Assembly: GCA_964479175.1 (NCBI GenBank)
Contig: CAYZLT010000001.1
Coordinates: 25,428-64,338 of the forward strand
Reading direction: 5' to 3'
Length of the DNA stretch: 38,911 nt
DNA from: an uncultured Solibacteraceae bacterium
Lineage (GTDB): Bacteria > Acidobacteriota > Vicinamibacteria > Vicinamibacterales > SCN-69-37
Part shown: positions 36,383-38,911 of the stretch, piece by piece
Layout: every line of letters begins with the position of its first letter
Position numbering within the stretch: position 1 is the first letter of the stretch
Notes under the pieces: model-generated
The model's database searches: none
Seen by the model: the letters and a program-made list of their open reading frames with translations, nothing else
Told to the model about the DNA's origin: nothing
Position numbers and translations under genes: made by a program

Positions 36383-36550
36383 TCAGGAAGATTCATACGC
36401 TCTGCGCTCCTTGGGATCGGGAATCGTTACTTCGAGGGGATCGCCGAAAATCGTGGACGCCTCGACGAAGTCAACTCGATGCTTCTCGAGATTCTCCGCA
36501 GCCTTGACCGGATCCCACCGGCGGCCGACTGGTGCAACGCACGTTAGGCC
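36383..36550 (-). pseudogene. BrnT-like (DUF497) toxin remnant, truncated at both ends
   Basis: Stop-to-stop frame reads [55 protein letters not shown]. WDPxKAxxNxxKHxVxFxEAxxxFxDP is the BrnT N-terminal signature. There is no start codon and it is about half the expected length. Confidence 0.6.
36518..36549 (-). repeat. Half attC site (R''-L'' arm only) at the distal end of the array
   Basis: Minus strand GCCTAAC gtgcgttgcaccagtcggccgccgg parallels the R''-L'' arms of the 37123..37198 and 37929..38003 sites. No matching L'-R' arm follows; the BrnT remnant begins instead. Confidence 0.55.
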
Positions 36551-36561
36551 TCACGGTGGAA

Positions 36562-36774
36562 CTAGCTCGCCCGCCGCTTCGCCAGCAGAGCCCGGACCTC
36601 TGGTACCAGTTTCACTGGCACCTTCATGAGCGTGGCCTTGGTGGATCGGTAGGCGACCTCGTCCTCGGCGACCGCCGCGACGTCGGTCTGTTGCTCGTAG
36701 TGAGTGATCACTCGTTTGACGCGAGCCGCGTTCCAACCAACGGGAAACTGATTCTGTTTCGTCGTGTTCTTCAT
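36562..36774 (-). CDS. Small putative antitoxin/partner protein (70 aa) of the upstream toxin-like gene
   Basis: MKNTTKQNQFPVGWNAARVKRVITHYEQQTDVAAVAEDEVAYRSTKATLMKVPVKLVPEVRALLAKRRAS. Its ATG overlaps (ATGA, 36771..36774) the stop of the toxin C-terminal frame. Confidence 0.55.
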   Translation of the reverse strand: MKNTTKQNQFPVGWNAARVKRVITHYEQQTDVAAVAEDEVAYRSTKATLMKVPVKLVPEVRALLAKRRAS

Positions 36775-37065
36775 AGCTTCTTCCGCGTTGATGACTTCTG
36801 ACGACGACGCAAGGCCTTGAGGGCCTTCGCACCGAGTTCGTACGCCGTAATCACGAAGACGGCACCCGGTACCGGATCGGGGACGTAGATGACCCGCAAG
36901 TACCGGCCCGCTTCCGTTTGGGCCAAGCGCCACGCGCGACCCATCGCGTCCCGCTCGATCCTCCATTGGCCGTGTCAACACGTCCTCGATTTCCTGTTCC
37001 TCGACATCGTGGCGGTAGATGTGCGGCTGCCGCGTCGACTCGTCGATGAAGTACCGGACTTTCAC
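36771..37065 (-). pseudogene. DUF4258-like toxin gene with a +1 frameshift near 36921..36925
   Basis: The N-part (frame of GTG 37065) reads MKVRYFIDESTRQPHIYRHDVEEQEIEDVLTRPMEDRAGRDGSRVAL. The next frame reads AQTEAGRYLRVIYVPDPVPGAVFVITAYELGAKALKALRRRQKSSTRKKL, then stop. The span is 295 nt (= 3n+1). The track ORF 36562..37065 is a chimeric read-through. Confidence 0.65.
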
Positions 37066-37122
37066 AATCAGATTCTACGCCCGCATCCTGGAGTCCGATA
37101 GATCTCCGAGCGAGGGATTGGG

Positions 37123-37198
37123 GCCCAACTCGCCGCTTCAGCCGCGGCGGAATCAAATGCTTGCACCATCCGCCGACGTCTGCAAGCGGTGGTTAGGC
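37123..37198 (-). repeat. attC site (76 bp)
   Basis: Minus strand: GCCTAAC caccgcttgcagacgtcggcgga ...loop... tccgccgcggctgaagcggcga GTTGGGC. The arms pair with bulged bases. The DUF2971 stop TAA lies inside GCCTAAC. Confidence 0.7.
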
Positions 37199-37924
37199 CG
37201 TTCCCACACACGTAACGATTGGAATGCCAGCGGCTATCTGGTCGACCGCCGCAATGTCGGCCGCGGACACCCTGGGACCAAGCACGACCTTGGATACGCT
37301 CGAGCCATTAATTTTGACCTCGCCTTGCTGTCTTCTGGCCAGGAATCGAATTTCCTGCTCTGGGGACCATGACCTCGTCTTCGTCAACAACGTTGCATAG
37401 ACCCCGATAGCCGAATCGCGCTCGTCCATCGACCGTATGAAGTCGTCGATGTGAATTCTTCGGTCATCGTCGTAGATGACACGGTGCAGTTGTGTGCCCA
37501 TCAGCGATTCGGGGACGTCGATCTCAATTGCGACACCCCTACCGTCGCCGGCATAGCGTGACCACATTATTGGGTTATCTGACGTTGACCCAAAACTCGC
37601 GATCCCAACCTCGTCACGTATCTGGCCAATCATGTCGGCAATCACTGGTCGACCCAGAGATTCCAGAACACCTCGATCGAGAACTATCTGAGCTCTTCGA
37701 CGCGCCTCTGGCGCGGGGTGATGGTTCGCCTTCTGCAGGAGAGTTCCCAGGACATCAAGAGTGGTGGGTGACGGCGTGAAGTCACACGTCCACGCGAACT
37801 CTCCTGGGTCGTTAAGGGCGTCCGGCCGAGCGCACCACACGAAGCCGTCACGCACAATCCGACTGAGCCTCGACAGACTTACGCCGTCGCTGGAGTCGAC
37901 CTCTCGGTACTTATAGATCTTCAT
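37193..37924 (-). CDS. DUF2971 family protein (cassette cargo)
   Basis: ALNDPGEF and IMWSRYAGDGRGVAIEI match the DUF2971 NDPxE / MWxxYA motifs. The ATG lies 4 nt after the attC R' core. Confidence 0.7.
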   Translation of the reverse strand: MKIYKYREVDSSDGVSLSRLSRIVRDGFVWCARPDALNDPGEFAWTCDFTPSPTTLDVLGTLLQKANHHPAPEARRRAQIVLDRGVLESLGRPVIADMIGQIRDEVGIASFGSTSDNPIMWSRYAGDGRGVAIEIDVPESLMGTQLHRVIYDDDRRIHIDDFIRSMDERDSAIGVYATLLTKTRSWSPEQEIRFLARRQQGEVKINGSSVSKVVLGPRVSAADIAAVDQIAAGIPIVTCVGTA

Positions 37925-37928
37925 ATCG

Positions 37929-38003
37929 GCCCAACGCCCGGCTTCAGCCGCGGCGGAATCAAATGATTTTACCCGCCGCCGTCGGCTGCACGGCGTGTAA
38001 GGC
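37929..38003 (-). repeat. attC site (75 bp), R'' core degenerate (GCCTTAC)
   Basis: Minus strand: GCCTTAC acgccgtgcagccgacggcggcggg ...loop... tccgccgcggctgaagccgggc GTTGGGC. The L'-R' arm is near-identical to that of 37123..37198. Confidence 0.65.
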
Positions 38004-38035
38004 AGTTTTTGGCGTGGGTGCTACATTAGCCTTGG

Positions 38036-38257
38036 GTGACCGCCATGTCGATGACATTTGAAATCGAGATCGATCGTGAGGACGATGGTCGATGGATTGC
38101 CGAAGTCCCCGCTCTCTCCGGAGTCCTGTCGTATGGTCGGACTCAAGACGAAGCGGTGGCGCGAGTGCAGGCCTTGGCCCTCAGGGTGCTTGCCGAGCGG
38201 CTGGAGCACGCTGAAGCGCCTGCCGAATTCTTGACAGTCACCTTCAGCGCAGCGTGA
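38036..38257 (+). CDS. hicB: HicB-like antitoxin (UPF0150-type)
   Basis: FEIEIDREDDGRWIAEVPALSGVLSYGRTQDEAVARVQALALRVL. The likely start is ATG 38045. It lies opposite to the array direction. Confidence 0.7.
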   Translation: MTAMSMTFEIEIDREDDGRWIAEVPALSGVLSYGRTQDEAVARVQALALRVLAERLEHAEAPAEFLTVTFSAA

Positions 38258-38448
38258 GCACCTGGCCGGCGACCAAGGCGCGTCGCGTATTGACGGCGCT
38301 CAGCAAGATCGGGTGGCAGATCAAACGGCAGTCTGGCTCCCACCGCACCCTCTGTCGAGACGGATGGGCAGATACGGTCTTCGCCTTCCACGATGACGAT
38401 GAACTTGGCCCAAAGATGTTGAGTCGGATCGACAAAACACTGGACTGA
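38254..38448 (+). CDS. hicA: HicA-family toxin (YcfA-like), C-terminus possibly altered by a 1-nt deletion
   Basis: KARRVLTALSKIGWQIKRQSGSHRTL is the HicA core with the catalytic-region GSH. GTGA overlap with the hicB stop. Confidence 0.7.
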   Translation: MSTWPATKARRVLTALSKIGWQIKRQSGSHRTLCRDGWADTVFAFHDDDELGPKMLSRIDKTLD

Positions 38449-38493
38449 CTCCCGACGATCTCTGAGCGATTTACCGGCCCGACATGTTTCTGC

Positions 38494-38800
38494 TCAGCTG
38501 TGCGCAGGATCCGCGTGGGTCGCGCCGCGTCGCAGAAGGTCAGCCACGGTCGTGGCCGAGTCGCGAGTTGGCGGGCTGAATTGGCTCAACTCCTCGTCAG
38601 TGACGACCCCGAGAGCAATCATCGACGCGAGGCTCCCGCTCGTTCACGACTCGAAAAAGACGAAGGTATCGATCGTGAACCGGACTGTTCGTGTCCTGAA
38701 TTCCGGGCGCACACTCCTGGAGCACACGGACACAATAACGATCCAACGCCGTGTGATGGAGCGCCCGAAGTAATCGCCAGTCGGCTTCTGGACGCGTCAT
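38494..38800 (-). pseudogene. Cassette ORF of unknown function, split over two adjacent frames (307 nt = 3n+1)
   Basis: Frame A (38800..38597) reads MTRPEADWRLLRALHHTALDRYCVRVLQEC...NEREPRVDDCSRGRH. The +1 frame is open from 38643 to the stop at 38494 and reads ...VVTDEELSQFSPPTRDSATTVADLLRRGATHADPAHS. Both frames are open across 38597..38643, which contains a G4 run. AAGGAAG lies 5 nt before ATG 38800. Confidence 0.45.
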
Positions 38801-38816
38801 ACGGTCTTCCTTGTCT

Positions 38817-38874
38817 GCCCAACGTTTGAGTTCAGCGGCGGCCGAAGGCAGTCCGATGCAACGAAGGGTTAGGC
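38817..38874 (-). repeat. attC site (58 bp)
   Basis: Minus strand GCCTAAC ... GTTGGGC. Its internal ttcagcggcggccgaa (plus strand) is related to ttcagccgcggcggaa in the other sites. The upstream partial ORF ends with a TAA inside GCCTAAC. Confidence 0.6.
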
Positions 38875-38911
38875 AGCTGTGCCTCGCGAAAGCACAAAGT
38901 CGTCTTGCATT
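38869..38911 (-). CDS. 3' end of a further cassette ORF entering from the right edge
   Basis: The frame ...QDDFVLSRGTAA ends with TAA (38871..38869) inside the R'' core, the same geometry as the DUF2971 cassette. Too short to identify. Confidence 0.35.
   Translation of the reverse strand, partial: MQDDFVLSRGTAA

Follow-up and report, generated by a model that had tools for sequence, protein, structure and literature searches.

Distal cassette array of a probable sedentary chromosomal integron upstream of the cbb3 oxidase genes in a Vicinamibacterales bacterium (Acidobacteriota)

We analyzed a 38,911-nt stretch of acidobacterial DNA (hereafter, the window). At its right end lies what is very probably the far, oldest portion of a cassette array belonging to a sedentary chromosomal integron with a fixed site upstream of the genes for a TAT-signal protein and the cbb3 oxidase in a clade of Vicinamibacterales (Acidobacteriota). 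An earlier note on this DNA, made from its letters, had left two alternatives, a chromosomal integron seen at its distal end or a cluster of attC sites with no integrase, and these proved to be the right two. A look-up of the DUF2971 gene in the array retrieved ten collinear metagenome contigs; a single one of them, L001, from the window's own population, reaches further right, by 1.7 kb, and it is used throughout to extend the view.

Three attC sites on the minus strand

Three elements of 58-76 nt near the right edge of the window, proposed in the earlier note as attC sites, bear out that proposal in their cores and their hairpins:

37123..37198, minus strand: attC site 1, 76 nt, R'' GCCTAAC, R' GTTGGGC
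37929..38003, minus strand: attC site 2, 75 nt, R'' GCCTTAC, R' GTTGGGC
38817..38874, minus strand: attC site 3, 58 nt, R'' GCCTAAC, R' GTTGGGC

The top strand of all three is the minus strand of the window, and their bottom strand is its plus strand. Inverted terminal cores, R'' (RYYYAAC) and R' (GTTRRRY), are present in 3/3 sites, with the GCCTTAC of site 2 one base off AAC, and sites 1 and 2 share 81% identity across 70 nt. Core heptamers by themselves are no rarer than chance (6 found in the window versus 7.6 expected); the complete elements, unlike the bare heptamers, are far beyond chance. An imperfect internal L''/L' palindrome gives each site a single-strand hairpin, and folding of the plus (bottom) strand, a check suggested in the earlier note, yielded -21.3 (z = -3.8), -19.7 and -10.0 kcal/mol for sites 1, 2 and 3. 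The bulged bases that it had described in imperfectly paired arms are likewise there: covariance-model alignments put two single-base bulges at fixed positions of the R''/L'' arm, which is the 5' arm of the top strand and the 3' arm of the bottom strand. Across the family, these bases are G in 97/117 and A in 103/117 sequences on the top strand, and hence C and T on the bottom one; the first extrahelical base on the bottom strand is C where G is usual, which counts against an attC reading. Site 3 agrees at 22/23 positions with the published degenerate attC primer for classical cassette PCR, GCSGCTKANCTCVRRCGTTAGSC, and its L001 allele at 23/23, while site 2 is 87% identical to attC sites of arrays L037/L120.

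These sites were scored with a covariance model, R1, built from 117 independent metagenome sites, none from the window; because the pattern used to fetch these training sites came from the sites of the window itself, the scores are partly by construction. Under R1, with its window-derived training pattern, the minus strand scored 56.7 bits (E 6.7e-13) at site 1, 47.4 bits (E 2e-10) at site 2 and 49.9 bits (E 4.1e-11) at site 3, as against ~12 bits when these sites were read in the plus direction; the absence of significant covariance-model matches, which the earlier note had raised as a counter-case, was not seen with this home-built model (E 7e-13 to 2e-10). The three sites, in one orientation only, are the sole significant matches in 38.9 kb, the other 36 kb of the window yielding a best background of 12.4 bits (E 0.37). 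Five pairs were left free by the retrieval pattern, and all five covary (21-40 sequences each), with the two bulge positions conserved; 94% of cells in the family alignment are paired, compared with 22-41% in slid controls. A fourth site, in L001, lies outside the retrieval pattern and still scored 27.8 bits (E 1e-5). Family members build long co-oriented arrays in metagenome contigs and adjoin integron integrases in L026, L124, L014, L029, L137 and L213, and sites inside the array belong to at least two subtypes rather than to a single homogeneous repeat. An Rfam scan of the window returned no family at gathering score, a result of little weight since Rfam holds no attC model.

Each element does lie just 3' of a gene, each is a G+C-rich imperfect palindrome, and the heptamer cores alone are not over-represented, all of which would suit unrelated intergenic hairpins, such as transcription terminators, that resemble attC sites by chance. 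We consider that reading scarcely credible: no T-run follows the hairpins, the structure-aware model (window-derived training pattern) gives E 1e-10 to 1e-13 with a strand asymmetry of ~50 versus ~12 bits, and sites in integron arrays elsewhere are 81-87% identical. Identity to array sites, model scores and the co-oriented arrays together effectively refute it.

Cassettes and the decayed distal end

In keeping with the cassette array of the earlier note, the co-oriented sites bound cassettes, which are promoterless. Successive sites start 806 and 888 nt apart, within the 0.3-1.5 kb range of a cassette array, and each follows one or more ORFs with little non-coding DNA:

38875..38911, minus strand: 3' untranslated tail of the next upstream cassette, collinear with L001:1697-1733, with a 129-aa ORF in L001
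37935..38822, minus strand: 888-bp cassette ending with attC site 2, its length equal to the repeat spacing of 888
38494-38800, minus strand: small ORF region of the 888-bp cassette, two overlapping frames, possibly frameshifted
38254-38448, plus strand: hicA, reverse-oriented in the 888-bp cassette (HicA PF07927, E 8.1e-12)
38036-38257, plus strand: hicB, reverse-oriented in the 888-bp cassette (HicB-like, E 0.004, under the cutoff)
37129..37934, minus strand: 806-bp cassette with a lone DUF2971 ORF, ending with attC site 1
37193-37924, minus strand: DUF2971 ORF (PF11185, 27.7 bits, cutoff 22)
36550..37128, minus strand: cassette body with a two-gene module, a DUF4258-like toxin and a 72-aa partner ORF
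37065..36771, minus strand: DUF4258-like toxin, split by a frameshift (fused reading, profile 13-71/71, E 7e-4)
36780..36562, minus strand: 72-aa partner ORF, overlapping the toxin stop in ATGA
36518..36549, minus strand: truncated attC with R'' (GCCTAAC), spacer and L'' arm up to the loop, its L'/R' half deleted
36386..36517, minus strand: brnT toxin remnant (PF04365, E 1.6e-10, profile 1-42/77)

The DUF2971 ORF starts 4 nt past the preceding R' box, in agreement with the earlier note, and stops at a TAA within the GCCTAAC (R'') of attC site 1. It is one of two ORFs that had been described as ending in this way; the other is an open frame entering from the window edge, and its L001 counterpart is a gene that stops 38 nt before the attC site. 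The right edge of the window falls inside the cassette that carries the 129-aa ORF in L001, and attC site 3 is part of this upstream cassette, with the crossover point G|TT between 38823 and 38822. The DUF4258 match of the fused toxin reading (20.3 bits) is below the Pfam cutoff of 25, and an exact look-up of a 67-aa ORF found it not on record. The GC drop reported for this region is real though modest: 59.4% versus 63.4%, with 0/339 equal-sized windows in the remaining sequence as low.

At the distal terminus, the half element of the earlier note is indeed led by GCCTAAC, but it is an attC of which the 5' half survives, joined to the brnT remnant by a deletion. It shares 92% identity across 37 nt with the 5' half of an intact attC (L093:3062-3132, 50.5 bits); scored as a whole site by R1, it reaches 8.7 bits, which is not significant. 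The brnT remnant, without its first codons and C-terminal half, abuts the core gene at 35981-36379 and is the terminal relic of the array; in a relative (L133), a 76%-identical frameshifted brnT lies at the same array end, beside the TAT-protein gene. The cassettes at this end are old and decaying, as seen in an attC that has lost one half, a toxin gene with a frameshift and the stub of brnT.

Further up, the cassettes have the character of independent units, shared across arrays with edges at G|TTRRRY. L001:670-1791 is 93% identical to the otherwise unrelated arrays L219-L223, the homology stopping just past the R' box of attC site 3, and the two strain types of the population show 2/2636 mismatches downstream of the crossover point of this site versus 12/157 upstream. 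By this comparison, the cassette with the 129-aa ORF is a diverged allele in the window-type strain, and an allele exchange bounded at attC site 3 suggests recent cassette-level recombination in the population. All metagenome contigs across the region (10/10) have identical cassette order, and thus give no direct evidence that cassettes are still being shuffled in this stretch.

The integrase in relatives and the array beyond the window

From the direction of the cassettes, the earlier note had placed attI and intI to the right of position 38911, and the gene order of two relatives, L137 and L213, bears this out: intI, attI, attC sites, TAT protein, ccoN. Both carry a full-length intI (TIGR02249, 443 bits) at the orthologous site upstream of the TAT-signal protein and cbb3 genes, and the array of L213 has six model-detected attC sites. 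Core genes (amidohydrolase/glyoxalase) lie on the far side of the integron in these two relatives. In a synteny survey, we searched 80 ccoN loci (1.35 Mb) with the attC model; matches were confined to the seven closest relatives, all upstream of ccoN and co-oriented, with no copies in the 73 more distant loci (1.2 Mb). Gene order around the cbb3 operon takes an alternative form in L218 and L214. Cassette content varies among the relatives, apart from the terminal brnT relic (L133) and DUF2971, a 76%-identical homologue of which follows an attC site in L132. The integrase, expected by the earlier note to be divergent, is instead on the same strand as the cassettes in L137, L213, L217, L218, L026 and L029, an 'inverted integrase' arrangement. 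In L135, intI is reduced at this site to its last 38 codons (C-terminal), and it is fragmented in L014 and L124. Both a complete integron and an integrase-less array thus occur in the clade, since L137 and L213 are intact and L135 retains only a remnant.

In the window's own population, L001 adds two more cassettes to the right, for at least five in the array, and then comes to a break within a cassette, at which there is a divergent IS200/RayT-like Y1 transposase gene. This gene is 196 nt away from the first cassette ORF, and its junction truncates a cassette. The search past 38911 called for in the earlier note gave further cassettes and a Y1 transposase gene in place of intI and attI: neither the window nor the 1.7 kb beyond it holds an integrase, and the conserved attI motifs of the clade (GTTATGMAGC repeats, CTTGCAGGTTAAT..TTAGTTAGAC) were sought in the window and L001 and were absent from both. 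Neither sequence has an intI with the IntI-specific extra domain by the array, or an attI by an intI. All contigs of this population, which is present in ENA ERZ505514 and in JGI 3300020213 and its sister samples, break in or near the array, and the end of L001 is probably an assembly limit rather than the end of the locus, because it falls inside a transposase gene that is multi-copy in these samples (L211, L212). A search with the transposase fragment returned paralogues at 88-91% identity in other contexts (again L211 and L212) and no continuation of the locus; one with a 147-aa cassette protein located this pair of cassettes in further arrays, with no integrase on those short contigs. Querying with the L137 IntI, we recovered no 75-95% identical protein from this population's samples among the top hits, and the 79-85% identical matches all came from other samples. 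The complete integron of L026, from one of the same sample series (Ga0163144), was considered as this organism's own and dropped, because its IntI is 56% identical to that of L137 and its DNA is more G+C-rich.

It is conceivable, at somewhat under even chances, that the array has this same origin but that this strain has lost intI and attI or had them separated from it, leaving the array inert unless an integrase encoded elsewhere acts in trans. The array in L001 ends at a cassette-truncating Y1 junction with no clade attI motif, intI has decayed at this very site in L135 and is fragmented in L014 and L124, no close IntI of this population came up among the top protein-search hits, and the distal cassettes are decaying. 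Weighing the other way are the position of the L001 break, inside a multi-copy gene where assembly probably stopped, and the allele exchange bounded at attC site 3, which suggests recent cassette-level recombination.

The transposase gene also brings up the reading that the elements are REP/BIME-like palindromes spread by the adjacent RayT-like HUH (Y1) enzyme, and not integron sites. Its proximity in L001, and the fact that HUH transposases work on single-stranded hairpins, fit this idea, which we nonetheless regard as very improbable. Dispersal of the element as a REP or MITE, named by the earlier note as a counter-case, is not seen: there are zero copies in the 36 kb of flanking core genome, in the non-array part of L001, in the 73 more distantly related ccoN loci, or in two contigs with transposase paralogues, where a different palindromic repeat, TATGGACAGGTCATA, is abundant. 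The elements are moreover co-oriented, they flank ORFs closely and they co-occur with integron integrases, and the transposase junction cuts a cassette short. We give as little credence to the idea that the RayT-like HUH transposase has displaced the integron integrase in this lineage and now processes or mobilizes the attC hairpins, in which case an HUH enzyme would have taken over the array from a tyrosine recombinase.

Working model and comparison with known systems

On the favored reading, a sedentary chromosomal integron, the known integron mechanism would apply. Each cassette would once have been a circle with one attC. The bottom strand of that attC (the plus strand of the window) would form a hairpin in which the R and L boxes pair and two bases stay extrahelical; the integron integrase would join this hairpin to attI at G|TT, placing the cassette beside attI, and newer insertions would shift older cassettes down the array. 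The toxin-antitoxin modules probably guard the array against deletion, as established integron biology suggests. Judging from the relatives, intI would lie upstream of the cassettes and on their strand, past the right edge of the window; in this population, a rearrangement with the IS200/RayT-like transposase gene interrupts the array after two more cassettes.

The locus is a well-formed example of a known element type and leaves knowledge of how integrons work unchanged. It provides a well-documented chromosomal integron for the Acidobacteriota, a phylum that abounds in soil and of whose mobile-element systems few have been studied. One clade offers a comparative series, from intact integrons (L137, L213) through an alternative order around the cbb3 operon (L218, L214) and a decayed integrase (L135) to a transposase-interrupted array (this strain), which could serve to study the ageing of sedentary integrons into integrase-less attC clusters.

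Such clusters, attC sites without an integron integrase, are known as CALINs, a term that reportedly stems from the IntegronFinder work. The sequence available for this strain, with three to four attC sites and no integrase, resembles one; it differs in that the cluster sits where relatives hold a complete integron and in that the contig ends within the array. The locus is like REP elements and their RayT transposases in that its palindromes are short and imperfect and that, in L001, it adjoins a RayT-like gene, whereas the window's sites are clustered, oriented, cassette-bounding and integrase-associated, and the transposase paralogues are flanked by another repeat. An existing collection and model of Acidobacteria-type chromosomal attC sites, from integrons of the same phylum as those described here, comes from Ghaly et al. 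(PMC8352920; model used in PMC9176274). 'Inverted integrase' integrons form a sub-clade of soil/freshwater IntI (PMC8352920), and the six contigs with intI and cassettes on the same strand resemble them in gene order.

A close likeness is to sedentary chromosomal integrons such as those of Vibrio cholerae (the superintegron) and Xanthomonas, with which this locus shares a fixed chromosomal position common to related species, co-oriented attC-bounded cassette arrays, cargo mostly of unknown function with many toxin-antitoxin cassettes (some reversed), decay at the distal end and, in some lineages, decay of the integrase. It differs from them in its acidobacterial (probably Vicinamibacterales) host, its short arrays (at least five cassettes here; six attC sites in L213), the presence of at least two attC subtypes within the array and, in relatives, an intI co-oriented with the cassettes.

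attC elements and gene cassettes in the window

An earlier note had described three GCCTAAC/GCCTTAC...GTTGGGC elements and a half element on the minus strand beside the cbb3 oxidase operon, and their sequences and coordinates proved correct. Cassette limits were drawn with the crossover taken as G|TT in R′.

Features of the cassette array
38874..38817, minus: attC site 3, 58 nt, GCCTAAC ... GTTGGGC
38822..37935, minus: cassette, 888 bp; small, possibly frameshifted ORF region and a reverse-oriented hicBA pair
38003..37929, minus: attC site 2, 75 nt, GCCTTAC ... GTTGGGC
37934..37129, minus: cassette, 806 bp; DUF2971 ORF, start 4 nt past R′, TAA stop within R″
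37198..37123, minus: attC site 1, 76 nt, GCCTAAC ... GTTGGGC
37128..36518, minus: truncated cassette; frameshifted DUF4258-like toxin and a 72-aa partner with an ATGA overlap
36549..36518, minus: half element, GCCTAAC at its head

Sites 1 and 2 are 81% identical, and element starts lie 806 and 888 nt apart. The core 7-mers by themselves were not over-represented in the window, so that the case depends on whole elements. These form imperfect hairpins from single strands, with plus-strand energies of -21.3, -19.7 and -10.0 kcal/mol (z = -3.8, -2.0 and -1.4). Aligned to the covariance model described below, each site has two bulged bases on its R″/L″ arm, which is 5′ when the minus strand is read and 3′ when the plus strand is. 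The extrahelical bases of canonical sites, such as the attC of aadA7, lie on this arm of the bottom strand, the one that recombines. By that rule the plus strand serves as bottom strand here and the minus strand is the one on which cassettes read, in agreement with how six of the seven gene modules are oriented. The usual extrahelical pair is G and T. Here the bottom-strand bulges are C and A at site 1 and C and T at sites 2 and 3, a bulged C being the norm of the 117-site family described below.

The placement of the DUF2971 ORF between its flanking boxes and the drop in G+C were also as first read: the array has 59.4% G+C against 63.4% elsewhere in the window, and every segment of equal size in the remaining sequence is richer in G+C. 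The DUF4258-like toxin (36771-37065, minus) and a pair of 67-aa and 42-aa ORFs (38494-38800, minus) look frameshifted; both sequences are common to all ten population contigs and are thus not single-read errors.

The distal end is decayed. In the last cassette the attC breaks off within the loop: the first 37 nt match, at 92% identity, the 5′ half of an intact attC on another contig (L093), and the sequence then directly enters a brnT toxin gene at about codon 5. This gene too is cut short, beyond profile position 42 of 77. Core genes follow, encoding a 132-aa membrane protein, a 229-aa TAT-signal protein, and CcoN with the remaining cbb3 oxidase components. The 229-aa protein (35224-35913, minus) matches the TAT signal weakly and could be assigned to no family. 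Its gene immediately precedes ccoN in the majority of the closer ccoN loci searched, at 50-91% identity, and the protein is a possible, so far unrecognised accessory of this oxidase.

A covariance model of the attC family

Public metagenome contigs were scanned with the pattern GCCTNAC N25-55 CCGCNGCTGAA N7 GTTRRRY, which fixes only the core boxes plus a portion of the 3′ arm. More than 120 contigs were among the matches listed, none of which overlapped the window locus, and 117 distinct sites aligned well. Scored on a hand-drawn R/L-box structure, 94% of alignment cells were paired, versus 22-41% with partners slid. All five pairs with both sides unconstrained by the pattern covaried, with 21-40 sequences altered on both sides (covariation score 0.196 versus 0.08 for shuffles), and two unpaired single positions in the 5′ arm were conserved (top-strand G in 97 and A in 103 of the 117 sites).

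The covariance model built from this alignment was run unfiltered over the whole window and returned exactly the three sites, all of them minus-strand, with scores of 56.7, 49.9 and 47.4 bits (E 7e-13 to 2e-10). These scores are partly built in, as the window's own sites supplied the retrieval pattern. In the plus-strand reading the same sites scored ~12 bits, and the best match elsewhere in the window reached 12.4 bits (E 0.37). Support independent of the retrieval pattern comes from several sources. A fourth site (1150-1212) on L001, a longer contig of the window's own population, falls outside the pattern and still scores 27.8 bits (E 1e-5). Well over 100 further sites in metagenome contigs lie in long co-oriented arrays, ten of them at 0.4-0.9 kb intervals on one contig (L047), and integron integrase genes adjoin members of the family. 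Among published degenerate attC primers (PMC2669170), GCSGCTKANCTCVRRCGTTAGSC agrees with site 3 at 22 of 23 positions and with all 23 of the L001 allele, and the partner primer matches the fourth site at 22 of 23, all in the predicted orientations.

The array beyond the window

Ten metagenome contigs carry the region in one common order at 98.8-100% identity, and most break between 38371 and 38911. L001 (74 kb, 99.85% identity to the window) continues for another 1.7 kb. It supplies two more cassettes, one with a 129-aa ORF and closed by site 3, the other with a 147-aa ORF and a separate attC. The attI motifs of the clade occur in neither L001 nor the window. After a 196-nt spacer comes a divergent IS200/RayT-family Y1 transposase gene, inside which the contig stops. 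Elsewhere an overlapping 66-aa ORF precedes the 147-aa gene; homology to this arrangement breaks within the 66-aa ORF at about position 670 of L001, so transposase-linked DNA truncates the cassette and the array once continued. No IntI attributable to the window's population was recovered by search, and it is possible, if somewhat short of probable, that in this strain the array is an integrase-less remnant rather than a complete integron.

Transposase paralogues, 88-91% identical, lie on other contigs of the same samples and probably account for the assembly break. The paralogue contigs lack attC-class sites and carry a different palindromic repeat, which speaks against reading the attC-like elements as REP/RayT repeats. 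The family is multi-copy in these samples (L001:1-670, L211:3768-4514, L212:3969-4800 and L212:8504-9085); the L212 copies are surrounded by at least five copies of a palindromic repeat containing TATGGACAGGTCATA, unrelated to attC.

Sequence turnover may be cassette-wise. The two cassettes at L001:670-1791 are 93% identical to other contigs (L219-L223), with homology ending directly past the GTTRGGC of site 3, beyond which L219 carries unrelated genes. Between L007, a window-type contig, and L001 there are 12 differences in 157 positions upstream of the site 3 G|TT and 2 in 2636 downstream. One contig (L008) joins an L001-type attC body to a window-type TTGGGC, a junction that rests on a single base and calls for caution. 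These breakpoints fit recombination at the attC crossover point; homologous exchange inside the conserved attC may also have produced them. On L224-L227 (for example L225:4427-6194), an NTase_sub_bind pair and an overlapping SnoaL-like gene precede a homologue of the 147-aa protein (86% identity), which lies beside a giant glutamate dehydrogenase gene and has a single attC site after it. This may be a distinct small cluster of cassettes carried by other genomes.

The same locus in relatives

The window's CcoN places it in Acidobacteriota, the closest genomes, at 85-93% amino-acid identity, being mostly labelled Vicinamibacterales. Among 80 ccoN loci (1.35 Mb), the model matched only in the seven closest relatives, always upstream of ccoN and on its strand, as in the window. 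In one relative (L137) a full-length 320-aa integron integrase (TIGR02249, 443 bits; cutoff 265) is encoded ahead of two attC sites, three more ORFs, the TAT-protein gene and ccoN. Another (L213) has amidohydrolase, glyoxalase, intI, six model-detected attC sites with many toxin-antitoxin cassettes, the TAT-protein gene and ccoNO. The integrase sought at this site is thus present in relatives, but it shares the cassettes' strand in both and is not divergent. Between intI and the first cassette, the clade keeps three GTTATGMAGC repeats, CGTGYTAACATCC, and CTTGCAGGTTAAT..TTAGTTAGAC, a putative attI with a presumed crossover at GTTAGAC. A third relative (L135) is a clear case of integrase decay: the amidohydrolase is kept, and at the orthologous site upstream of two attC sites intI is reduced to its last 38 codons (3519-3632).

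Gene order varies around this integron. L213 (9237-20600) and L137 have glyoxalase, intI, cassettes, TAT protein and cbb3 genes, whereas L218 (4936-11200) and L214 have glyoxalase, TAT protein, cbb3 genes, intI and cassettes, with the integron and the 4.4-kb cbb3 block in exchanged positions. In some relatives ccoN and ccoO are fused into one ORF of 844-876 aa (L137:10001-12631, L213:18061-20595); the window's strain has two unfused genes (33882-35213). L026, which comes from a sample series also represented here (Ga0163144), has a complete integron whose intI contains an in-frame tandem repeat at 1832-1890, with a 15-nt unit (...LGHMVLGHMVLGHMVLGHM...). The repeat may be a true insertion or may have arisen in assembly; long G and C homopolymer runs also occur at the start of this contig.

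Together, the model-detected sites and the intI-bearing arrays at the same locus in relatives identify the element as a chromosomal integron cassette array viewed from its distal end, and the earlier note was essentially right in both observation and interpretation. The window and its relatives have only two items of cassette content in common, the DUF2971 cassette (76% identity in L132) and the terminal brnT relic (76% in L133, frameshifted and immediately beside the TAT-protein gene). With its fixed site, variable content and common decayed terminal cassette, the locus looks like a sedentary chromosomal integron, and chromosomal attC sites of Acidobacteria have been collected and modelled before (PMC8352920, PMC9176274).
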